Positions 1-15,314 of a DNA stretch of 64,000 nt are shown here, in pieces. Position numbers and translations under genes: made by a program. Source of the DNA: an uncultured delta proteobacterium (GTDB taxonomy: Bacteria; Myxococcota_A; Polyangia; Haliangiales; Haliangiaceae); contig CAVUQH010000002.1 of NCBI GenBank assembly GCA_963743525.1, positions 1 through 64,000 on the forward strand, given 5' to 3'. The stretch's first letter is position 1. Each line of letters starts with the position of its first letter. The notes beneath the pieces were generated by a model that was given only the letters and a program-made list of their open reading frames with translations, ran no database searches and had not been told where the DNA came from.

Positions 1-1020
1 GCGGTGTCGTGATCGGCAATCCCATCAATGACGTGACCTGTCTGTCCCGGATCACGGACGCAGCCACCGAAGCGGTGGACACCGAATCGGTGCGCAACCT
101 GGCGATGCGTTTCGAGACATGCCGGAGCTGGCGGCATGGATCCGCAATCTGCCGCAGCGGAACGACATGGGCGATCCGGACGACGGCCCACGGGTGGCGT
201 CCCCGACGTGTCCCAACGGGTGCGCATCCCGGCCGCCAATCCGAACTGCGTCGAGCGGTCGGCGCTCTACCTGGCTGCGGGCGAGATCATCGATCCACGG
301 CCGCTTCGGCAGCTCGCCACCATCCACACGCCGATCGGACCGCACACGTTCCCCGTCGAAGAATGACGCACCGATCAAGCTCGATCCGCGCATCCCGCGG
401 AACGCCCTCGAAGCCGGTCTGTTCCGCATGATGGAGCCGCGCGAGCTGGATCTCTCGCCCCGTGAAGCGCTGCAGTGGATCGGCGCAATTGCGGCGGAGC
501 CGGCCAAGGCACACCGCAACGGACGGGCACGGGTACGCAACGCGCGCCGGGCGTTCGATCGCGTGCTCCGCGGTAGGCCGGTCCGCGGAATGCCGTCGAG
601 GACGTGGGATTTGCCTTCGCGATGGCCGAGCAGGCGGCGCGGATGTTCGGCGTCCAGGGGCTGGAGGTGGTCAAGATGGGGGCCATGGCGCTCGACCACC
701 TGGCCCGGCGCCGTCCGCGCCCACGGCGGAACCTCTCGCTGCGCATCGGCGGCCTCCGAATCGAGCCGGACCTGGGCACGCTTGGCGCGGTAGCCAGGGT
801 CGGCGAGCGACTCGGGCTTCGTGTCGGCGCCGCCGCGCTGCAAGCCAAGCTCGCCGAGCTGGGCATCACCGCGCCCGTCATCGCCGAGGTGGAGCACGAG
901 CTGAATCGCGAAGGGCTCAGCCTCGGACAGCTGGCCAAGCCCAGACCGCAGCCGGGAACGCTGGCCGCGCTGACGACCAGCGCGCTCATGGGCCAGCGCG
1001 CCGCGAACGCAGTGACGTAG
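1..1020 (+). CDS. Putative transglutaminase/papain-like Cys-His-Asp protein, 5'-truncated by the window and broken by about 4 frameshifts
   Basis: Stitching frames at ~116, ~200, ~360 and ~583 gives a continuous protein: GVVIGNPINDVTCL...ELAAWIRNLPQRND...RIPAANPNCVERSALY...GPHTFPVENDAPIKLDPRIPRNA...AANAVT*; Cys codon 247-249, His 343-345, Asp 383-385. Confidence 0.55.
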
Positions 1021-1180
1021 CCGCCCACGGCACACGCCGGGCCGCTTGCCTCGCGCCGCCGCGAGAACGCCCGATGTGCGCCTCGAAAACGGACCTCGCA
1101 GGCCCCAGCGGTCTGCCCAAGTAACGCCGGGCTTCGGCCCGCCACGGACCGGGTGCGCCCGGAGAACGGAACCAGAGGAG

Positions 1181-1957
1181 ATGCAGATCATCAGCCAGCC
1201 GACCCCCAAGGAGACCTTCGTGCAGGAGATTCGCGACGCGGTCGCCGATCTGTTCGACGCGATCTTCGACCTCGCGTCCGAAGAGGTGCGCGACTTCCCG
1301 GAGGATGTCGAGCGCATCGACAACGTCAGGCTCCAGACGCACGACTGGATCGAGGGCAACCACACGCTGTGGGTGGACGAGGACGACGTGCTGTTCACCG
1401 CCTCGGTGGTCATCGATGCGCTCAGCATGCAGTTCGGCTCGCCGGAGCTGAGCGAGGCACTGAATGCCCAGCTCGCCGCGATGGTCGCCGAGGTGCGCCG
1501 CCAGCGCGAGGCCGCCAGCGGGCCCGCGAGCGCGCTGTTGGAGGCGCCCCGCCCGGCGCTGCTGGGCCCGGCGTCCGACAGCGTGTCCTACGTGCACTCA
1601 GACGCGAATCCCCCAACCGCCAACGGAAGGAATCACGATCATGGCTGCAAAGAAGAAGAAGACCCACCACCCCCCGGCGGCGTCGCCCCGCCAACAACAA
1701 CACGACGCTCAAGACCGTCGGAGCTGCGGTGCTCGGCGGCGCTGGTGGCGCGATGGTCGGCGGGCTGCTCGTCCGCTCGGGCGTCACGCCCACCACGGCC
1801 GCCGTGGGCGTCACGGTCGCCGGCTCGGTCGGCGCCGCGATGGCCAAGAAGGGCACCCCCATGCGCCTGGCTTCGGGCGGCGCTGCCGCGGCGGGCGCCG
1901 GCCAGCTCGCGCTTGCCTGGCTGGCTTCGCAGGGGACAAAGAAGACTACGACGGTGA
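1181..1957 (+). CDS. Hypothetical acidic helical protein of the element; true end probably near 1600-1640
   Basis: AGAGGAG directly before ATG 1181 (MQIISQPTPKETFVQEIRDAVADLFDAIF...); typical GC3 codon use to ~1600, after which the frame runs into the next gene. Confidence 0.6.
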   Translation: MQIISQPTPKETFVQEIRDAVADLFDAIFDLASEEVRDFPEDVERIDNVRLQTHDWIEGNHTLWVDEDDVLFTASVVIDALSMQFGSPELSEALNAQLAAMVAEVRRQREAASGPASALLEAPRPALLGPASDSVSYVHSDANPPTANGRNHDHGCKEEEDPPPPGGVAPPTTTRRSRPSELRCSAALVARWSAGCSSARASRPPRPPWASRSPARSAPRWPRRAPPCAWLRAALPRRAPASSRLPGWLRRGQRRLRR

Positions 1958-2103
1958 GCGTGCGGCCGACGCATCCGAAGCCGAAGAACGCCGCCGACCC
2001 CGGTGACGTCGAGGCGGCGTTCGAGCGCGCCCGCGAGGAGCTGGCCATGCAGGACGAGGCCGACGCGTTCGCGGACGACTACGACCAGGAGGTGGCCGCC
2101 TAG
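1641..2103 (+). CDS. Hypothetical membrane protein with basic N-terminus, Gly/Ala-rich hydrophobic helices and acidic tail (one frameshift)
   Basis: GGAAGGA RBS then ATG 1641 MAAKKKKTHHP; removing one C from the C6 run 1670-1675 joins it to RRRRPANNNTTLKTVGAAVLGGAGGAMVGGLL...DYDQEVAA*. Confidence 0.65.
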
Positions 2104-2116
2104 CTCTCTGTCTATC

Positions 2117-2155
2117 GCTGTCGCGGATCGGTTCCTGATGTAGCGCGGGCTGCGC
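2117..2155. repeat. Left arm of a 39-bp inverted repeat (partner 3059-3097)
   Basis: GCTGTCGCGGATCGGTTCCTGATGTAGCGCGGGCTGCGC; its reverse complement matches 3059-3097 at 37/39. Confidence 0.95.
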
Positions 2156-2182
2156 ACCCATTTCTCACGCAAAGGAGAGTCC

Positions 2183-2602
2183 ATGTACGAAGACATCGCA
2201 GACCTGATCATCCTCGACGGAAGCGACGAGGACGAGCTGCGCAACGCTACCCGCGATCATCGCCGTTCCACCTCCCGGTCCTCGGGGTCGCCCCGGCGTT
2301 CCATCGTTCGGCCCCGCACCGCGATCATCCGCACCGGCGGCTCGCGTGTGTCGGCGCATCGCCCCAGCGCGGGCAGCATCATCCGCCGGGACACGGGCGG
2401 GCTGAGCACGGGCGTTCTCATCGAGTCGGGCGCCCAGGTGCTGGCCGCGATCCAGCCCCTGCCCCAGGCCCCGGTGGCCACGGGCAAGCTGGAGGACGAT
2501 CTCAGCAACCTGGTGCTGTACCAGAAGGCGCTGGCCGAGCACGCGAAGCGTGACGAGCAGCTCCGCACCGTCGGCTCGCTCGCGAGCAAGTTCTTCGCCT
2601 AG
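2183..2602 (+). CDS. Hypothetical protein, candidate virion structural protein (Arg/Ser-rich segment, helical C-terminal half)
   Basis: Strong RBS AAAGGAG; 139 aa MYEDIADLIILDGSDEDELRNATRDHRRS...ALAEHAKRDEQLRTVGSLASKFFA. Confidence 0.8.
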   Translation: MYEDIADLIILDGSDEDELRNATRDHRRSTSRSSGSPRRSIVRPRTAIIRTGGSRVSAHRPSAGSIIRRDTGGLSTGVLIESGAQVLAAIQPLPQAPVATGKLEDDLSNLVLYQKALAEHAKRDEQLRTVGSLASKFFA

Positions 2603-2607
2603 AGGCC

Positions 2608-3039
2608 ATGAGCATGCTCGGAACCCTGCTCGGAACCACGACGCCCCTGTACAAGGGCACCGCTCAGCCAGGCACGGCATCGGCTGGCGGGCTCGTGGGC
2701 TTGCTCTCGGGCCTGTTCGGCACCGCGGGCACGCCGGCTTATGCCGGCACGGGGCAGCCGGCTACCTCGGGTAGCAGCTTCTCCATGTTCCCGCAAACGC
2801 CGGTCTACGCCCGTCCGGTCGTGGCGTCCAGCCCGGACGCCGCGCCCCCGGATGCGGAGCAGCCCATCCTCGCGCCTGCGCCAAGCCCTGCGCCCGCACC
2901 CGCGCCGACCGAGAGCGAGCCCACCGGACAGAACGCCGAGGCGCCCGTCCGGAAGACCACGCTCATCGTGAAACCGGGACCCGGAACCTCGATGGAGGAC
3001 GTTGTGCGGTTTCTGCAAGACCGCGTCCTCGACGACTAG
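2608..3039 (+). CDS. Hypothetical protein with three TPxY repeats and a Pro/Ala-rich linker
   Basis: 143 aa ORF 5 bp after the previous stop with GAGG RBS; TTPLYKGTAQP / GTPAYAGTGQP / QTPVYARP. Confidence 0.75.
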   Translation: MSMLGTLLGTTTPLYKGTAQPGTASAGGLVGLLSGLFGTAGTPAYAGTGQPATSGSSFSMFPQTPVYARPVVASSPDAAPPDAEQPILAPAPSPAPAPAPTESEPTGQNAEAPVRKTTLIVKPGPGTSMEDVVRFLQDRVLDD

Positions 3040-3058
3040 CACCTAACACCTGACCTGC

Positions 3059-3097
3059 GCGCAGCCCGCGCTACTTCAGGGACCGATCCGCGACAGC
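3059..3097. repeat. Right arm of the 39-bp inverted repeat (partner 2117-2155)
   Basis: GCGCAGCCCGCGCTACTTCAGGGACCGATCCGCGACAGC. Confidence 0.95.
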
Positions 3098-3125
3098 TCC
3101 ACATCCATCCCCCCAAGGAAGACCC

Positions 3126-3780
3126 ATGTTCTTCTTGCGCAACTCACACCCGGCTCCATCCGCAACGCGCCCCCCGTGCGTTCGGGCTCGAAGCCGACAA
3201 CTTCAGCGACCTCGCGATCGCTCTCTACAAGCATTTCATGAAACTCCGCGGACCCGATCCGGCGACCAAGGGGCAAAGCACGCTCTATCCCGCGACCACC
3301 AACCGGGACATTACCGAGCTGGCCACCTTGTGGACCAGGGAGGTGGCTCGCGCCAGCATCGACAACGACACCGACAAGGTACGCGCGAAGCAGTGGCGCG
3401 ACTGTATCGCACAGGTCCACCGCGACGCGGACGTGGCCGCACATCCTGATGCTGTCTACGCGCACACGTACGATTTCTGGCGCTGCATGGAGAAGATCGC
3501 CATCTGGCTCGACGTGCGCAAGCTGCGTCCGAGCACCTGGGACCTCGTGGTGAACTCGGTCGGCGAAGCGGTCGAAGATCTGCCGAACACCTTCGGGGAC
3601 GCCGCGCACGCGGTCGGCGGTGCGGGCAAGCGAGCCGTCGGCGCGGCCGGCGACGCAGCGTCCGCGGTCGGACGGGGTCTGGTCGACTTCTTCGACAAGC
3701 CGGTCACGATCATTGCCGTACTCATCGGCGGCGCGCTCGTCATCCCGCCAGTGGTACGCGCTCTCCGAGGCGCGGAATGA
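3126..3780 (+). CDS. Hypothetical C-terminally membrane-anchored protein, paralog 1 (one frameshift near the start)
   Basis: AAGGAA RBS before ATG 3126; removing one C from C6 at 3170-3175 joins MFFLRNSHPAPSATR to AFGLEADNFSDLAIALYKHFMKLRGPDP...; hydrophobic C-terminus IIAVLIGGALVIPP. Confidence 0.7.
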
Positions 3781-4313
3781 CCGTGAACCTGCGCGGCGCG
3801 AGCGCGCTCGATCACCAGCGCCGCTTGCGGGCCTTTTTCGCCGACCAGCGCGGAGCCCAGGATGTCGAAGGCGTTCCTGTCCCGCGCACGACCAACGCCG
3901 ACGTTATGCGGCTCGCTGGGGCCTGGAGTCGCGAGCTGGCCCGGGTCCCCATAGCCAGCGATCGCGATCGCACGGCGCGCGCACGCTGGGCCGCCTGTAT
4001 GGCGACAGTGCGCAAGCTCGCTGACCCCGCTCGCCCTGACCAGGAGTACGCAGCGAATCGCGCCTTCTGGCTCGACTGTACGGCGCAGCTGAGCAACTAC
4101 CTGGCCCAGCGCAAGGCGCGCCCGAGCACCTGGTCGCTGGTCGTCGATGCCGCGTCCGACACGCTGGCCGAGGTCCCGGGCGCGCTCGGGGACGCCAGCA
4201 AAGCCGCCGCAGGCGCCGCCGCTGGGCTGGTGAAGGAGCCGGCCAAGCTGGCGCTGGTCCTCCTGGGCGGCGCGTTGCTGCTGCCACCGCTGGTCAAGGC
4301 GGTGCGGTCGTGA
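3777..4313 (+). CDS. Hypothetical C-terminally membrane-anchored protein, paralog 2
   Basis: ATGA overlap with the upstream gene; shares PxTTNxD, WxRExAR, PDxxYA...FW, RKxRPSTWxLVV and GGALxxPPxV with it. Confidence 0.8.
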   Translation: MTVNLRGASALDHQRRLRAFFADQRGAQDVEGVPVPRTTNADVMRLAGAWSRELARVPIASDRDRTARARWAACMATVRKLADPARPDQEYAANRAFWLDCTAQLSNYLAQRKARPSTWSLVVDAASDTLAEVPGALGDASKAAAGAAAGLVKEPAKLALVLLGGALLLPPLVKAVRS

Positions 4314-5035
4314 CCGCCAGGCGTGGCCGAAACGGCTGGCTACTTCTGGCAGGTGGGGCCGCTGTGGGTGCCTACGCACTCCACCGGAGCGTTCGGACCG
4401 CGCAGGGAAACACGGGCGAGGTCAGGCCGGCGGATCGCCCGGTCCTCCTGCCCGCGGCGGGCAAGCGCTTTGACGCCCTGTTTCGCCGGTGGGGCAACGA
4501 GCGCTCGATACCGCCCGCGTATCTCCGCGCCCTGGCCGCTCGCGAGTCCAACCTGAACCCGAGCGAGCGCGACGGTTCGGCCTGGGGTCTGCTTCAGGTG
4601 CGCCAGATCGTCGTCGAGGGCTTCAACCGCCACCACGGCACAACGCTCCAGCACATGGACATGCTCGACGCCAAGCGCAACGTCGAGGTCGCCTCCTGGC
4701 AGCTTCGCACCATCGTCAACAGCTACCAGCGCAACCACCCGCTCATCGGCAATCTACAGGAAGACTGGACCAACCCCCGCTTTGTCGAGCTGGTGACCTT
4801 CGGCTGGAATGCCGGCTGGTCCGAGCGCGGAGGGGTCGGCCGTGTGGCCCGATACCTCGAGCGTCGCGGCCAGACGGCCGCCGTCACAATCGATCTCATC
4901 CACGACGCCGCCCGCGCGGCCGGCGCCGCGTCCACGCTCTCGCGCGCCGACAAGGTGCGGTGGTGCAAGGGCGTGGTCCGCATCTACATGAGCGAACGTT
5001 TGCGAGGACCCATCGCCGCGAGACCCGCGGCGTGA
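4310..5035 (+). CDS. Lytic transglycosylase (SLT/lysozyme-like) with N-terminal membrane anchor
   Basis: YLRALAARESNLNP (catalytic Glu, ES motif) and AWGLLQV motif; hydrophobic WLLLAGGAAVGAYAL; GTGA overlap. Confidence 0.8.
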   Translation: MTARRGRNGWLLLAGGAAVGAYALHRSVRTAQGNTGEVRPADRPVLLPAAGKRFDALFRRWGNERSIPPAYLRALAARESNLNPSERDGSAWGLLQVRQIVVEGFNRHHGTTLQHMDMLDAKRNVEVASWQLRTIVNSYQRNHPLIGNLQEDWTNPRFVELVTFGWNAGWSERGGVGRVARYLERRGQTAAVTIDLIHDAARAAGAASTLSRADKVRWCKGVVRIYMSERLRGPIAARPAA

Positions 5036-5045
5036 AGGAGAGGAC

Positions 5046-5384
5046 ATGTTGAACTCGAACGAGCTGATGGCCGCCATCGCCCGAGGCGCGGCCCCCGAGG
5101 CTGACGCCGAGAGCAAGCGAAGCGCGGCGCAGGCGTGCCGCTGGCTTCTCACCGCGCTGGAATCCGAGCCGGGAGCTCCGCTGGTGCCGCCCGATCCCCC
5201 GGTTGCCTCCGCGCCGGCGCCGGCACCCGCAGCGACCGCACCGAAGACTGGCATCCCCGCCGGGCAGATCCTCGACGTGCTCATCGCCAAGCTGAAGGCC
5301 GAGCTGCCCGATGAGGCGCCCGCCCCCGAGCGTCCGGCGTTTCGCATCCCCTTCGTGCCCGTTCCGACGGGGAGCCGCCGGTGA
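5046..5384 (+). CDS. Hypothetical protein
   Basis: AAGGAGAGG RBS; 112 aa ORF co-oriented with the element genes. Confidence 0.65.
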   Translation: MLNSNELMAAIARGAAPEADAESKRSAAQACRWLLTALESEPGAPLVPPDPPVASAPAPAPAATAPKTGIPAGQILDVLIAKLKAELPDEAPAPERPAFRIPFVPVPTGSRR

Positions 5385-5414
5385 TGGTCCGGCGGTTTCC
5401 CGGCCGCGCTGGCG

Positions 5415-5443
5415 TTGCGGGTAGCACCCAAATGCATTACGTT
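5415..5443 (+). promoter_or_regulatory. Sigma70-type promoter for a leaderless RHH regulator transcript
   Basis: TTGCGG (5415-5420), 17 nt, TACGTT (5438-5443), 7 nt, ATG 5451. Confidence 0.5.
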
Positions 5444-5450
5444 CCGGTGC

Positions 5451-5642
5451 ATGCCCCCAAGCGACGCAAGCCTGACGATCCGACTGCCCGCCGATCTCAA
5501 GGACGCCATCCTGCGCGTGGCCGAGGACACGCACCGCTCCGCCGGCAAGCTGATCACGATGGTGATGAGCGAGTACCTGGAAGGTCTCGGTGAGTACACC
5601 CCAAAGCGCACCAGACCCGCGCGACGAACCCGCCGTCGATGA
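5451..5642 (+). CDS. Ribbon-helix-helix (CopG/Arc-like) DNA-binding protein
   Basis: SLTIRLPADLKDAILRVAEDTHRSAGKLITMVMSEYL fits the RHH beta-alpha-alpha pattern. Confidence 0.75.
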   Translation: MPPSDASLTIRLPADLKDAILRVAEDTHRSAGKLITMVMSEYLEGLGEYTPKRTRPARRTRRR

Positions 5643-5781
5643 CGCCGTCAGCAAACGAGACCGCGAGCTGCTCCGCTACCTCGTAGAAAGGACCGTCGAG
5701 GAATGCATCCGAAACTCCAATCGAGCACCGTCGCAATCTACGCCCGGTACTCTTCCGATCGGCAGCGCGAAGCCAGCATAG
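5590..5781 (+). CDS. Small hypothetical protein overlapping the RHH and recombinase genes
   Basis: 63 aa ORF with amphipathic helix SKRDRELLRYLVERTVEECIRN; overlaps both neighbours, so uncertain. Confidence 0.4.
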   Translation: MSTPQSAPDPRDEPAVDDAVSKRDRELLRYLVERTVEECIRNSNRAPSQSTPGTLPIGSAKPA

Positions 5782-7354
5782 AGGACCAGGTCCGGCGGTG
5801 CCGGCAGTTCATCGCCCAGGCCGGCGGCGACCCCGACGCGGCGCAGGTCTTCTCTGACTTCGCTGTCTCCGGCGCCAGTCTCGACCGGCCTGGCTTCGAA
5901 GCGATGATGGCGGCCATCGACGGCGGCCGGCTCGGCGCCATCGTGACCGAGGACGTCTCGCGCATCAGCCGAGACTTCGCCGACTCGGCGCAGATCTTCA
6001 AGCGTCTCCAGTACGCCAGCGTCCCGCTGCTGGGCGTCGCCGACGGCATCGACACCAGCTCGAAGAACGCCAAGCTGTCGTTCACGGTCAAGAGCCTGGT
6101 CGCGGACCTCTACCTCGATGACCTGCGCGACAAGACGCTGCGGGGACTGGAGGGACGCGCGCTCGCCGGGTACGTGACGGGCAACCCGCCGTTTGGCTAC
6201 GCGACCGAGCCGGACACTGACGAGCGCGGAAACGTGCTCGGCCATCGGCCGGTCATCAACGAAGCGCAGGCGGCGATCGTTCGTCGCATCTTCCAGGAGT
6301 ACAACGACGGCGGCTCGCTCAACGGCATCGCCCGGATGCTCAACGTCGAGGGAGTGCCCTCCCCTCGCACGGGCACGCGCCACAAACGGACCGGCTGGGG
6401 CGGCTCGACCATCCGGGCGATGCTCTACAACGAGAAGTACGCTGGCGTGTGGAAGTTCAAGGAGCGGCAGTGGGTGAAGGTGCCCGGCAGCAACAAGCGG
6501 CGCCCGCGCGCCCGCAACGCCGACGAGGTCATGGTCAGCGAGCGTCCCGAGCTGCGCATCATCGACGCAGGACTGTGGGATGCCGTGCGAGCCCGGCTCG
6601 CCGCGACCAAGCGCAAGTACACCACGGGCAGCAAGGAGCGCGTCGCGGTGAGCGGGCGCAAGTCGAGCTACCTCCTGTCCGGAATCCTGGTCTGCGACGT
6701 ATGCGGCGGACCCATGACCATCCACGGCGGGACCTCGGCCCGGTACTACCGCTGCTCCGCCAATCGGACCAAAGGGACCTGCGAGAACGCCCTGAGCGTC
6801 CGCGAAGAGGTGATCCGCACCGAGATCCTCGACGTGCTGCGGCAGGAGCTGCTGACGCCGGAGCGCATCGCGTTCGTGCGCAAGCAGATCGCGCTGGAGC
6901 TGCGCGACTACTCGAAGAAGCTGGAGGCGGAGATCCGGGATCGGCGGGACCGGCTGGCGCGCACGGAGGAGAAGATCCGCGGGCTCGTCAACTTCATCGC
7001 CCAGGGTGACCAGTCCGAGTATGTGGTCCAGACCCTGCGCGACATGGAGGCGCACGCCCGCTCCGAGAAGGCAGCCATCGCCCAGCTCAAGGACGACCTG
7101 ACCCGGCCGCTGCGGCTGCCCAGCCTGGACGAGATCACCGACCTGGTGTTCAACCTCGACGCCTCGCTGAACACCGATCCCGTCCGCGGCCGAGGCCAGC
7201 TGCGCCGCTGGCTGAAGGACGAGGAGATCCGCCTGCGCCCCGAGCCGGGCGGAACCTACGCCGCCGAGGGCGCCCTGCTCCCGCTCGTCGTGCTCGCCGA
7301 CGCCAAGAAAAGAAGGCCACAAATCCCTCAGGAGGACTTGTGGCCTATCGTTCG

Positions 7355-7373
<19 letters not shown>
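5703..7373 (+). CDS. Large serine recombinase (integrase)
   Basis: AIYARYSSDRQ catalytic Ser, DRPGF, EDVSRISR, recombinase domain (PPFGY, W...TIRAMLYNEKYAG), Zn ribbon SYLLSGILVCDVCG...YYRC, coiled coil. Confidence 0.95.
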
Positions 7374-7428
<55 letters not shown>

Positions 7429-7444
7429 TCAATTTGTGGAGAGG

Positions 7445-7473
7445 TATTTATAAGGATGGCGGGGGGATGTCAA
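7445..7473 (-). promoter_or_regulatory. Sigma70-type promoter of the tRNA
   Basis: TTGACA (7473-7468) followed by AT-rich TTATAAATA at -10 distance, ~17 nt upstream of the tRNA 5' end. Confidence 0.6.
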
Positions 7474-7534
7474 GTCGGGGTGGCGGAATGTCGTCTTTTG
7501 GCTCCTGGCGGTGCCGAATCGGGCCGCCGGAGGC

Positions 7535-11147: not shown

Positions 11148-13445
11148 GTGAGGAAGCCGCAGGCGTTGGGCAAACGCCGCTGGTGGTCGGCGATCAACGC
11201 GCCGTTGCTGGCGGCGATCGCGGCCACGCTGCTGTCGGCCCTGGCCTACGCCGGCGACCACAAGGGCTGGTGGAGCGTGCCCGGGCTCGACCGCGTCGAG
11301 CTGCTCACGGTCAACGCGCGCTTTCGCTTGCGCGGCAGCCGCACACCGTCGTCGGACGCGCTGGTGATCGTCGGCGTCAACGACGCCACGCGCGAGCGTC
11401 ACCCGGAGGTGTTCCAGACCCGGCGCGGCTGGGCCGCCTTGATCGACGCCATCGGCGCCCGCCACCCGCGCGCCATCGGTCTCGACCTGTTCTTCCAGTC
11501 GCCCGAGGTGGCGCTGTCGCCGGAGGTGGTGACCCACGTGCGCGCCGCCGCCAGGGCGGTGCGCGCCGAGCCGCCGCCGCACACGCCGGCCACCAACCAG
11601 GCGCTGTCCGCGCTCGACGAGGTGATCGAGGAGACCCGCGGCGACGAGCTCCTGGCCGCGGCGGTGAAGCGGGCCAAGGTCGTCTACCTGGGCACGCTGT
11701 TCTACCTGCCCGAGCACGGCGACAAGCCGGCACCCGACGGCGCGACGGTGCCGCCCGGCGTGGGCAAGGCGCGCTACGACGAAGCGGCGCTGGTGGCGGC
11801 GCCGCCTTCGCAACGCCCGCTGCAGGCGGTGTGGGTCGGCAGCTCGCTTCCGGCGATCGCCGACGGCGCGGCCGGCGCGGGTGCGGTCAACGTGATCACC
11901 GACGACGACGGCGCCGTCCGCCGGGTGCCGCTGGCGCTGGAGTACGGCGGCGCGCTGTACATGCCGATGGGTATGGCCCTGGCCCGCGCGGCGCTGGGCG
12001 CCGATGCCAGCTACGTGGTCGGCGACAGCGAGGTGCGCCTGGGCGATCGGCGCGCGCCCGTCAACCCGCAGGGCGAGGCGATGCTGTCGTACCTGGGCAA
12101 GAACCAGACCTTCCCGCGATTGTCGGCGGCCGACGTGCTCGATGGCCGCATCCCCGACGGCGCGCTGGCCGGCAAGCTGGTGCTGGTCGGCTTCACCGAC
12201 AAGGCCCGCGACAAGGTGCAGACGCCGCTCGACGCCGAGATGGATGGCGTCGAGATCCACGCCACGCTGGCGCACAACCTGATCTACGACGAGCTGATGC
12301 GGCCGACCACGCCGGCGATCACTCTGCTCACCATCCTCGCCCTGGGCGGGCTGATCACGCTGGCGCAACTGCGCGTGGTCCGGCGCCGGCGCGCGTGGGT
12401 GGGCGGTGTCATCGTCGCCGCTGCGGTGATCGGCTACCTGATCGCCGCGCAGGTGGCGTTCGACCAGGGCATCGTCGTCGCCGTGGCCGCGCCACTGGCC
12501 ACCTGCGTGCTGGTGGCGCTGGCGTCGCTGGGCACGGCGCTGGCCACCGAGGGACGAGAAAAACGGGCCATTCGCACCGCCTTCTCCCAGTATCTGGCCG
12601 AGTCGCTGGTCGAGCGCATCGCTTCCAACCCCAGCCGCTGGCAGCAGATCCTGCGCGGCACGCGCGACGAGCTGACGGTGTTGTTCTCGGACATCCGCGG
12701 CTTCTCTCGCTTCTCCGAGACGCTCGAGCCGGAGGTGCTGTCGGCGTTCCTCCACGAATACCTGACGCCGATGACCGATCTGGTGCTGCACCAGGGCGGT
12801 CTGCTCGACAAGTACATCGGCGACGCGGTCATGGCCATCTACGGCGCACCCGAGGAGCAGAACGACCACGCCCGCCGCGCCTGCGACACCGCGCTGGCGA
12901 TGCTCGAGCGCCTGGTACCGCTCAACGCCGCGTGGAAGCCGCGCGGCCTGCCCGAGATCGCCATCGGCATCGGCATCAACACCGGGCCGATGTCGGTGGG
13001 CAACATGGGCTCGGACGCGCGCTTCGACTACACGGTCATGGGCGACGCGGTCAACCTGGGCGCCCGCCTGGAGCCGCTGACCAAGGAGTACGAGGTCAAC
13101 ATCCTGGTCGGCGAGGAGACCGCGCGCCAGGCCGGCGACGGCTTCGTCTTTCGCGAGCTGGATCTGGTGCGGGTCAAAGGTCGTCAGGGCACGGCGAGGG
13201 TCTTTCAGCTGGTCGGCCGCGCCGGCAGCTCGCCGCTGTCGGATGCCGACCTGGCGCGGTGGAACCAGGCGCTGGCCGACTACCGCGCCCGCGCGTGGGA
13301 CGCCGCCGAGCGGGGCTTCGTCGAGATACTCGACGTCCACCCCGAAGACGGGCCCGCGCAGGTGATGCGCCGACGCGTGCGCGCCCTGCGCCTGGATCCG
13401 CCGGGAGACGACTGGGACGGCGTGTACGCGCAAGTGTCCAAGTAG
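11148..13445 (+). CDS. CHASE2-domain adenylate/guanylate cyclase
   Basis: DDDGAVRR and DGVEIHA CHASE2 motifs, 3 TM helices, VLFSDIRGFS, DKYIGDAVMA, YTVMGDAVNLGARLE. Confidence 0.92.
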   Translation: MRKPQALGKRRWWSAINAPLLAAIAATLLSALAYAGDHKGWWSVPGLDRVELLTVNARFRLRGSRTPSSDALVIVGVNDATRERHPEVFQTRRGWAALIDAIGARHPRAIGLDLFFQSPEVALSPEVVTHVRAAARAVRAEPPPHTPATNQALSALDEVIEETRGDELLAAAVKRAKVVYLGTLFYLPEHGDKPAPDGATVPPGVGKARYDEAALVAAPPSQRPLQAVWVGSSLPAIADGAAGAGAVNVITDDDGAVRRVPLALEYGGALYMPMGMALARAALGADASYVVGDSEVRLGDRRAPVNPQGEAMLSYLGKNQTFPRLSAADVLDGRIPDGALAGKLVLVGFTDKARDKVQTPLDAEMDGVEIHATLAHNLIYDELMRPTTPAITLLTILALGGLITLAQLRVVRRRRAWVGGVIVAAAVIGYLIAAQVAFDQGIVVAVAAPLATCVLVALASLGTALATEGREKRAIRTAFSQYLAESLVERIASNPSRWQQILRGTRDELTVLFSDIRGFSRFSETLEPEVLSAFLHEYLTPMTDLVLHQGGLLDKYIGDAVMAIYGAPEEQNDHARRACDTALAMLERLVPLNAAWKPRGLPEIAIGIGINTGPMSVGNMGSDARFDYTVMGDAVNLGARLEPLTKEYEVNILVGEETARQAGDGFVFRELDLVRVKGRQGTARVFQLVGRAGSSPLSDADLARWNQALADYRARAWDAAERGFVEILDVHPEDGPAQVMRRRVRALRLDPPGDDWDGVYAQVSK

Positions 13446-13497
13446 CCACACGCAGTTTGCCATCGTCGGGTCGCAGCGCTTTGATAAGCTGTTAACG

Positions 13498-13911
13498 ATG
13501 TACCGCCGTCAACATCGCGCGTGTCCTTCGTGTGCCACGCCGATGCACCCGACGCGGATTCGCGTCGCCGGTGCCGAGGCGGTGGCGATCGAGATCTGTG
13601 CCGGGTGCGGTGCCTGCCTGTTCGACTACTTCGCCGCCGAGCTGGGGTCGGTGGCGCGCGCGCTGGCGCGTCAGGGCGCCCACCCCGAGAGCGCGCCGAG
13701 GCTCGACATCCGTCCGGCCTGCCCGGAGTGCGAGCTGCGGCTGCCGCTGGTCAGCTACCTCGACGAGGGTCCGCTGATCTATCGCTGCGACGGCTGCCTG
13801 TCGGTCTTCCTCACGGCCCGGCAGCTGCGGTTGTTGGCCGAGTTCGAGCAGACGCACAAGGCGTCGGTGACGGTGCTCCGGGCCGTCGGCGAGCGCCTCG
13901 GCGTCCTCTAA
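13498..13911 (+). CDS. Tandem zinc-ribbon (zf-TFIIB-like) protein
   Basis: CPSC...CAGC and CPEC...CDGC pairs. Confidence 0.7.
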   Translation: MYRRQHRACPSCATPMHPTRIRVAGAEAVAIEICAGCGACLFDYFAAELGSVARALARQGAHPESAPRLDIRPACPECELRLPLVSYLDEGPLIYRCDGCLSVFLTARQLRLLAEFEQTHKASVTVLRAVGERLGVL

Positions 13912-13981
13912 CCCGCGGAAATCCCGCCATAATGCGTGGCGGTTGACTTTCTTTCGGCGCCCGGATATTTAGGGAAGCGAA

Positions 13982-14457
13982 ATGTCCGGGCAGCGAAATG
14001 GCGACCCCGAGGGAATCGACCGAATCGTCGAGACCGCCATCTACCTGCAGGCCGAGTCGCGCCGCCTGGCGCGCGAGAGCTGCGCCCGCCACGGCATCAC
14101 CGCCACCCAGCTGAACGTGCTCAAGCTGCTCGAGGCGGTGGGCAAGCTGTCGCTGTCGGAGCTGTCGCGGCGGATGGCGGCGACCAACTCCACGGTCACC
14201 GGCATCATCGACCGCATGGTCGCAGCCGGGCTGGTCGTGCGCGAGCAGAGCGCCGAGGACCGGCGAGTCTGGACCATCGCCATGACCGACGCCGGTCGCT
14301 CGCTGTCGCGCGAGATCGAAGTGGCGCCGTGGGACCTGCTCCGCCAGGCGCTGAACGACCTGCCGGCGGCAGAGCTCGATAGCTTGATCGACACCCTGAC
14401 CAAGGTGGCCGCCCACGTCGAGTCGGCGGTCAGGACGAGAGACGGAGGCGAAGCCAA

Positions 14458-14461
<4 letters not shown>
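13982..14461 (+). CDS. MarR family transcriptional regulator
   Basis: [10 protein letters not shown]...[17 protein letters not shown]...DRR...TDAG. Confidence 0.9.

Positions 14462-15314
<853 letters not shown>

Follow-up and report, generated by a model that had tools for sequence, protein, structure and literature searches.

Conserved long-range inverted repeat around two genes of a myxobacterial integrative element, a possible RNase III processing stem

Bacteria usually rely on local hairpins to set the ratios of genes within an operon. Helices that close over much longer distances are known from ribosomal RNA, where the leader and trailer of 16S and 23S rRNA form imperfect RNase III stems of 30-50 bp with central mismatches and kilobase-scale loops. 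A 23S rRNA intervening sequence that carries an ORF, S23p of Coxiella burnetii, is likewise an RNase III-excised stem loop with paired flanks; it sits in rRNA, its one ORF is apparently not made and the RNA is rapidly degraded once excised (PMC4990558). B. subtilis RNase III cuts intramolecular long-range mRNA duplexes of 10-36 bp that span hundreds of nucleotides, up to 505 nt, and the figure examples are named for single mRNAs (priA, yqeU, atpA and asnB) (PMC11780869). Pairing across a coding region also controls RNase action in S. aureus icaR, where it involves one gene, covers the Shine-Dalgarno sequence and lowers expression (PMC3868564), and in B. subtilis hbs, one gene with a 14-bp pairing (PMC5737220). 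In the cip-cel operon, selective RNA processing and stabilisation in intergenic regions sets the subunit ratio through local 3'-end stem-loops (PMC4423207).

The DNA analysed here, referred to as the window, is a 64,000-nt stretch from the start of contig C2 of a myxobacterial genome of 8.55 Mb and 70% GC. It contains an inverted repeat that brackets two protein-coding genes, A and B, in the operon of a mobile element. The repeat resembles the rRNA stems in helix length, central mismatches and loop size, but its loop consists of protein-coding genes and its cleavage is a prediction. Stems of similar length with central mismatches occur at 5/7 16S rRNA loci of the host family; identity with these stems was rejected, since all profile scores were negative. 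As in the intervening sequences, flanks would pair around an excised coding loop, here as a proposal; in contrast to them, the loop would lie in mRNA and holds two conserved genes with ribosome-binding sites, whose products have no Pfam family. An rRNA intervening sequence was rejected, because Rfam searches over 1-7500 found a tRNA alone above threshold and no rRNA gene around the repeat. Compared with the B. subtilis duplexes, the loops are longer (737-1079 nt), the arms are intergenic, whole genes are enclosed and the arrangement is family-wide. Unlike the icaR and hbs pairings, this one has 30-40 bp, encloses two genes, is internal to an operon and leaves the Shine-Dalgarno sequence free. 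The parallel with cip-cel is intergenic processing that would set an operon's subunit ratio, a purpose that we infer for the present locus, where a single helix of long range would set and shield the two ends. In the open-access literature searched, we found no description of a stem enclosing a multi-gene mRNA segment and no paper on this element family.

The left arm (2117-2155, plus strand) and the right arm (3059-3097, plus strand), its reverse complement, are complementary at 37 of 39 nt (95%) and separated by 903 nt. They contain a conserved 30-nt core at 2125-2154 and 3060-3089, respectively. The two mismatches are U·G at 2133/3081 on the sense strand and U·U at 2139/3075. In 60 triplet shuffles of bases 1-7400, the longest repeat with two or fewer mismatches was 22 nt, compared to the real 39 nt. 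The left arm begins 13 nt past the stop codon TAG at 2101-2103 and ends 27 nt 5' of the ATG of gene A, whose Shine-Dalgarno sequence and ATG span 2172-2185. The right arm begins 19 nt past the stop codon of gene B and ends 28 nt 5' of the next ATG, at 3126, which has its Shine-Dalgarno sequence at ~3116-3121. The positions of these signals place both arms in intergenic gaps. The preliminary description had reported the 39-bp repeat, the intergenic position of its arms and a mismatch that becomes a G-U wobble in RNA, and all three were confirmed, the repeat exceeding all 60 shuffles. Searched against all 24 contigs of the 8.55-Mb genome, each arm matched only itself and its partner (E 2e-11), and therefore the 39-mer is not the dispersed genome-wide repeat that the same description had raised as an objection. 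A MITE or the terminal repeat of an IS was rejected together with a dispersed repeat on the grounds of the single genomic pair and its fixed place in the element. Rfam covariance models gave nothing on the arms at E up to 1, although the 900-nt split suits such models poorly.

Bases 1-7373 form a single run of co-oriented plus-strand genes. It opens with F2 (9-1020; F labels are ours), a putative transglutaminase-like Cys-His-Asp protease with invariant C80, H112 and D125 and about four frameshifts in the assembly. F7 (1181-1957; 3' end uncertain) has no known function, and F13 (1641-2103), a hydrophobic Gly/Ala-rich protein with its start codon and body in different frames, lies just 5' of the left arm. 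Inside the repeat are gene A (2183-2602; 139 aa; no Pfam, PHROG or NCBIfam family) and gene B (2608-3039; 143 aa), which encodes a low-complexity protein with 2-3 Pro-x-Tyr repeats and has no family. The first gene past the right arm is one copy of F9 (3126-3780; frameshift near 3175), followed by a second F9 copy (3777-4313), an SLT lytic transglycosylase (4310-5035; PF01464, E 4e-7), the small conserved protein F8 (5046-5384), a ribbon-helix-helix/Arc-like regulator with weak matches (5415-5642) and a large serine recombinase (5703-7373). The 3' end of the recombinase gene overlaps the 3' end of a minus-strand tRNA-Met(CAT) gene (7354-7428), where the element has probably integrated and has its right end. 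Sequencing errors close to the start of the contig, or else degeneration of this copy, would account for the frameshifts (F2, 9-1020; F13, 1641-1700; first copy of F9, ~3175), some of which are at homopolymer runs. Directly past the tRNA-Met 3' end, a 14-bp terminator-like hairpin with a U-tract (7314-7346, minus strand) overlaps the last codons of the recombinase gene on the opposite strand.

Relatives of gene A were found in 16 of 61 related genomes (own genome included), with up to 8 per genome. A phylum-wide sample of 301 genomes had them in only three, each from the same family as the host. The related loci are labelled as Kofleriaceae, Haliangiales and Myxococcales. Clustering the ORFs of 69 loci of 9 kb or more gave a fixed gene order: a variable regulatory block, F4, F2, F7, F13, A and B, F9, SLT, an M23 fusion, F8 and an integrase. 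The regulatory block of relatives includes an IrrE/ImmA-type peptidase, present in many copies of the element, and a gene that, in our own reading of its sequence, is sigma-like and that has no Pfam match. The M23 peptidase (Pfam) is fused to a domain that we take, from its motif, to be GIY-YIG-like. Among 98 loci the integrase is a tyrosine enzyme in 32 and a serine enzyme in 14, with none within the sequence examined in 52. Ten kinds of tRNA gene occur in the family loci, mostly just beyond the integrase, and the family core of ~8-12 kb lies beside many different tRNA genes. Attachment repeats, 14 to ~26 kb apart, were found at three loci: L063, where they are 20 bp long, and 2/5 loci extended by 40 kb, where they lie ~25 kb off. 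Attachment repeats of convincing length were absent from the upstream DNA (up to 10 kb) in 34/35 loci and were not found for the tRNA ends of 22 loci, and the window's tRNA-Met has no attachment repeat in its own assembly.

Most core proteins of the element are without a family. No capsid, packaging (terminase/ATPase) or replication family and no HUH Rep, relaxase or helicase was detected among the core proteins or among the ORFs tested in the attachment-bounded L063. IMG/VR contigs contained no gene A relative (0/32 candidates), no F2 relative (0/21) and no match to the core pattern. The two longer attachment-bounded copies contain defence and toxin cargo. Cargo regions at L235:1-7534, L233:2210-10094 and L066:788-4264, which lie between the core of the element and the far attachment repeat, have type I restriction-modification, TIR and PNP/NTPase defence-like genes as well as a WHH/colicin-type nuclease with an SMI1/KNR4 immunity gene. 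In the attachment-bounded L063, a group II intron reverse transcriptase (13359-15008) splits the M23/nuclease gene. Two small islands of the host genome (G000), at C12:724653-728608 and C4:602894-606592, have an F4-like gene, a tyrosine integrase and a divergent regulator-like gene without A, B, F2 or the repeat; the C4 island abuts tRNA-Cys.

Conservation of the repeat was examined in the window and 160 further loci, of which 80 were the best among 112 from genomes and 80 the best among 213 from metagenomes. Leaving out 36 loci with too little flank, 125 were testable, and 123 of these have the repeat between the regions before A and after B at a score of 37 or more, a cut-off chosen after the scores were known. 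Shifted control windows reached the same score in 6/342 cases (maximum 47). After dereplication at 90% identity, the repeat is present in 98/100 loci, with arms of 25-62 nt and loops of 737-1079 nt. The loci are kin, so these counts overstate independence. The two misses, L126 and L139, are truncated: both keep the right arm, and unrelated DNA replaces the left arm together with the 5' part of A. Of 20 further regions, which partly represent the same elements, 18 of 19 testable ones have the repeat. Three distant relatives without it (L043, L014 and L016) keep A and F9-like or F2-like neighbours. L016 has a local 13-bp GC hairpin just 5' of the gene that follows A's next gene. The loop always begins with gene A and includes gene B in 93/98 loci, while the gene past the right arm varies (F9 in 48, SLT in 33, F25 in 6, none called in 11). 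The bracketed genes stay constant as the downstream gene changes, and the stem is therefore tied to A-B. The two-gene cassette recognised from the window alone thus recurs with the same two genes in 123/125 testable relatives, and the suspicion that homologous elements might lack complementarity is contradicted by its retention in 98/100 dereplicated loci.

Aligning the left arms with the reverse-complemented right arms defined a 30-bp core with the consensus GGATCGG-variable-GTCGCGCGAGCG. It is 87.6% Watson-Crick paired, or 94.1% with G·U, compared to 32-43% when the arms are slid by 1-3 columns and 70.4% Watson-Crick when arms are crossed between loci. A locus's own arm was strictly the best partner in 27/98 loci; for many, the arm of a close neighbour fits equally well or better. 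Covariation was counted over 49 disjoint nearest-neighbour pairs on the protein A tree. Two-sided changes numbered 123 versus 39 expected, and 93 of the 123 led from one Watson-Crick pair to another; one-sided changes led to G·U in 85 cases, to A·C in 26 and to other mismatches in 50. The variable middle columns covary within a locus, and the arms of L050, L093 and L032 are off the consensus profile and still match each other. The kept complementarity, the compensatory changes and these off-consensus matching arms show that pairing between the arms is under selection.

Part of the sequence is conserved as well. About 14 core columns are 90-100% conserved across loci in which gene A homologues fall to ~40% identity, and the core contains a weak dyad of G[A/C]TCG half-sites. 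The arm profile finds 183/196 arms and one other site in 1.12 Mb, with none before the first gene; two unrelated single sites reach profile scores as high as that of the left arm (22.9 and 22.2) without being BLAST matches. No core is perfect (0/98), which is not significant by itself, and non-wobble mismatches gather centrally at columns 56, 61, 63 and 65. The preliminary description had set compensatory change, expected of an RNA stem, against sequence conservation, expected of a protein site: the covariation is there, and the clean separation is not, since conservation is strong too. In full folds the arms pair at a mean probability of 0.90-1.0 in 9/9 cases, and they are also paired in the MFE and centroid structures of the window. 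Kissing hairpins were dropped as a candidate, single-arm hairpins being no stabler than shuffles (mean z 0.65 and 0.36).

Mismatches on the sense strand are G·U in 189 and A·C in 57 of 415 cases, with G·U favoured in 72 loci, A·C in 7 and a tie in 19. Two columns wobble in 45/98 loci each, the arms differing in the direction that G·U permits. Differences of the C/T type exceed those of the G/A type 5.0-fold in the arms, but they also do so 2.7-fold at fourfold-degenerate sites of A and B, compared to 1.1-fold in the intergenic DNA next to the arms; this synonymous-site bias partly confounds the G·U excess. The sense duplex is the stabler one in 85/98 loci with RNA parameters (mean gap 5.2 kcal/mol) and in 75/98 with DNA parameters (gap 1.3). 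The G·U excess and the stability of the sense duplex therefore favour a sense single strand, and the counts fit both RNA and single-stranded DNA. RNA is preferred because the arms occupy the gaps between genes without reaching the ribosome-binding site, because the stem stays with A-B when the gene downstream is a different one, and because a rolling-circle initiator was not detected and the motif occurs with either class of integrase. Taken together, we think it probable that the arms form a long-range helix in mRNA, and the RNA-stem branch of the preliminary description is borne out by the kept complementarity, the compensatory changes and the preference for G·U on the sense strand.

CTX phage, with its folded attachment site, provides a model for pairing in single-stranded DNA. 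By analogy, the arms might pair in a sense single-stranded form of the element and act as a signal for packaging, priming or recombination. Such pairing, too, would favour G·T over A·C, and the weak dyad of the core and the greater stability of the sense strand with DNA parameters (75/98 loci) would fit it. We nevertheless regard it as improbable: neither the core proteins nor the tested L063 ORFs gave a match to an HUH Rep, relaxase, helicase or capsid, the same core occurs with tyrosine integrases (32 loci) and serine integrases (14), and the arms stay intact within integrated copies and hence are not the attachment site. The dyad and the strong sequence conservation could also mean that one protein reads each arm as a double-stranded site, either as a looping repressor or at convergent promoters for the sigma-like gene, and that the arms look complementary through a shared consensus, and the elements do have ribbon-helix-helix and sigma-like genes. 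This is very improbable, as the variable middle columns covary within a locus, at least three off-consensus loci keep matching arms, and hardly any site besides the arms fits the profile. Inverted repeats that flank a cassette near a recombinase gene might finally serve recombination that inverts the segment and so turns A-B on and off, as the preliminary description had suggested. The segment was inverted in 0/153 informative loci of 161 (0/99 dereplicated), both flanks were co-oriented in 101 loci, perfect cores are lacking, integrase class varies, and the mismatches lie mid-arm, where crossover requires identity. With no inverted copy and a motif that occurs almost nowhere else, both the switch and the dispersed repeat are rejected, and we give the switch next to no credence.

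We tentatively propose, with slightly less than even confidence, that the stem is an RNase III processing signal that releases a closed-end, probably stabilised two-gene message. A single polycistronic sense transcript would carry both arms, which would pair into a 30-40-bp helix closing a ~900-nt loop; a sigma-70 promoter scan was empty. Host RNase III would cut the helix and free A-B as its own message. The predicted double cut lies near the middle of the core, at 2138/2139 in the left arm (plus strand) and 3077/3078 in the right arm, in the best-fitting register, which is weakly supported. It would yield a ~940-nt A-B RNA (nt 2139-3077) with both ends locked in a GC-rich stem of 16 bp or longer, and the outer duplex would hold the upstream and downstream halves of the message together. 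The predicted inner stem has ~-38 kcal/mol in the window and a median of -49 kcal/mol across loci (best register). The median distance from core end to ATG is 28 nt, and the Shine-Dalgarno sequence of A lies outside the helix. An intact RNase III gene (rnc) is present in the host (L211). A second, frameshifted RNase III match (L212; G000:C3, ~1065000-1068000) lies among ORFs that we read as plsX-, acp- and mutM-like, and this stretch may be foreign or misassembled. The 14 nt past the right core are pyrimidine-rich (C-rich in the window copy), with 7 or more U in 26/98 loci; a long-range terminator formed by the helix and a U-tract was rejected because so few loci have the U-rich tract.

RNase III spans a helix of 22 bp and prefers A-U at position 2 of the proximal box (PMC3867540, PMC1540722, PMC6212723). 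We scanned 23 cut registers over the 98 loci with rules taken from E. coli and B. subtilis; the host has 70% GC. The central register (window 2137/2138) was best at 703, followed by registers at 689 (both halves paired in 13/98) and 609. In the best register both 11-bp halves are paired in 72/98 loci, A-U occurs at -11, +11 and +4 in 93, 84 and 70 of 98, and three of the four conserved A-U columns fall at rule positions; it fails for A-U at -4 (17 of 98), -3 (4 of 98) and +3 (13 of 98) and for wobble at -10 and +10 (1 of 98 each). By a rough estimate, this fit to the E. coli rules could arise by chance. The core sequence is also more conserved than RNase III reportedly needs (PMC3867540).

Closed RNA ends slow decay by RNase E/J and 3' exonucleases. 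In the most speculative step of the proposal, the closed ends of the A-B message would resist exonucleases and 5'-end-dependent decay, and because of this the operon would yield more of A and B than of its protease and cell-wall enzymes. The circularised message that the preliminary description had raised finds no support here; it would need a ligase, and PF09414 RNA ligase had no match in the host assembly (97% complete). Cleavage may also have the opposite effect, with RNase III cutting the helix to remove or down-regulate A-B, or merely to split a long message. The fast decay of the excised Coxiella RNA (PMC4990558) points this way, as do the 10/18 highlighted E. coli sites at which cleavage destabilised the transcript; both outcomes occur in that study (PMC5371410). 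It is an improbable reading, since both genes are conserved, with clear Shine-Dalgarno sequences that the helix leaves free, since the inner stem is predicted to be strong, and since L016, in a single case, has its local 13-bp hairpin in place of the repeat. Rather less improbable, though still unlikely, is a helix that forms and stays uncut. It might be a regulatory, localisation or packaging signal bound by an element protein, for example through the basic segment of A, or by RNase III that binds and does not cut, or might bring the upstream stop beside the downstream start. The ~14 near-invariant core columns would suit this, as would the basic segment of protein A after its Arg-Asn motif (median +5 in 40 aa), and the G-C pairs beside the predicted cut correspond to catalytic antideterminants of E. 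coli RNase III (PMC1540722). Against this, a near-regular helix of 30-40 bp is a typical substrate of RNase III, which the host encodes, and no RNA-binding family was detected in the element proteins.

Protein A has an acidic N-terminus, an Arg-Asn-Ala motif, a basic segment and a conserved C-terminal two-helix part, with no family, Atlas or viral fold match. Arg-Asn-[Ala/Ser/Gly/Thr] occurs near residue 15 in 97/98 loci (2243-2251 in the window's gene A), and the median net charge is -5 before the motif and +5 over the 40 aa after it. The Arg-Asn-Ala/Gly motif recurs in F2, F4, F7, F13, F25 and F0. It often separates domains, and in the M23 fusion, for instance, it precedes the GIY-YIG-like domain. 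Its density in several element families is 4-14 times that of unrelated flanking ORFs, which is 0.47 per 1000 residues. F2 combines invariant Cys, His and Asp residues with a weak lead (score 0.89) to transglutaminases, and the motif is likely the cleavage site of this putative protease. These features suggest protease-matured core proteins of some particle. That they are abundant structural proteins, as the preliminary description put it, is a label that we infer from protein anatomy. The Shine-Dalgarno sequences of A and B (medians -7.4 and -7.8 kcal/mol) are weaker than those of F4 (-9.3) and F2 (-8.9), and Shine-Dalgarno strength lends no support to over-produced particle proteins. The F4 model is good in parts; it matched nothing above Z 5.0 and had no Foldseek match at E 0.001, and the F2 and F4 profiles found no solved-structure relative.

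In its fullest form, the reading would be that an rRNA-style stem of a new class of myxobacterial element excises a closed-end, possibly circularised mRNA and so over-produces the core proteins of a capsid-less membrane particle, matured by a protease between Arg-Asn and Ala and carrying cell-wall hydrolases and a nuclease; judged from sequence, this whole chain is unlikely. If the processing stem itself is real, the excision design of rRNA and its intervening sequences would here be applied to a translated message, guarding both ends together, and synthetic mRNAs could be stabilised with the stem as a simple building block. It also marks a widespread integrative family that has no detectable capsid or replicase and shows a recurring Arg-Asn-Ala motif beside a putative protease.
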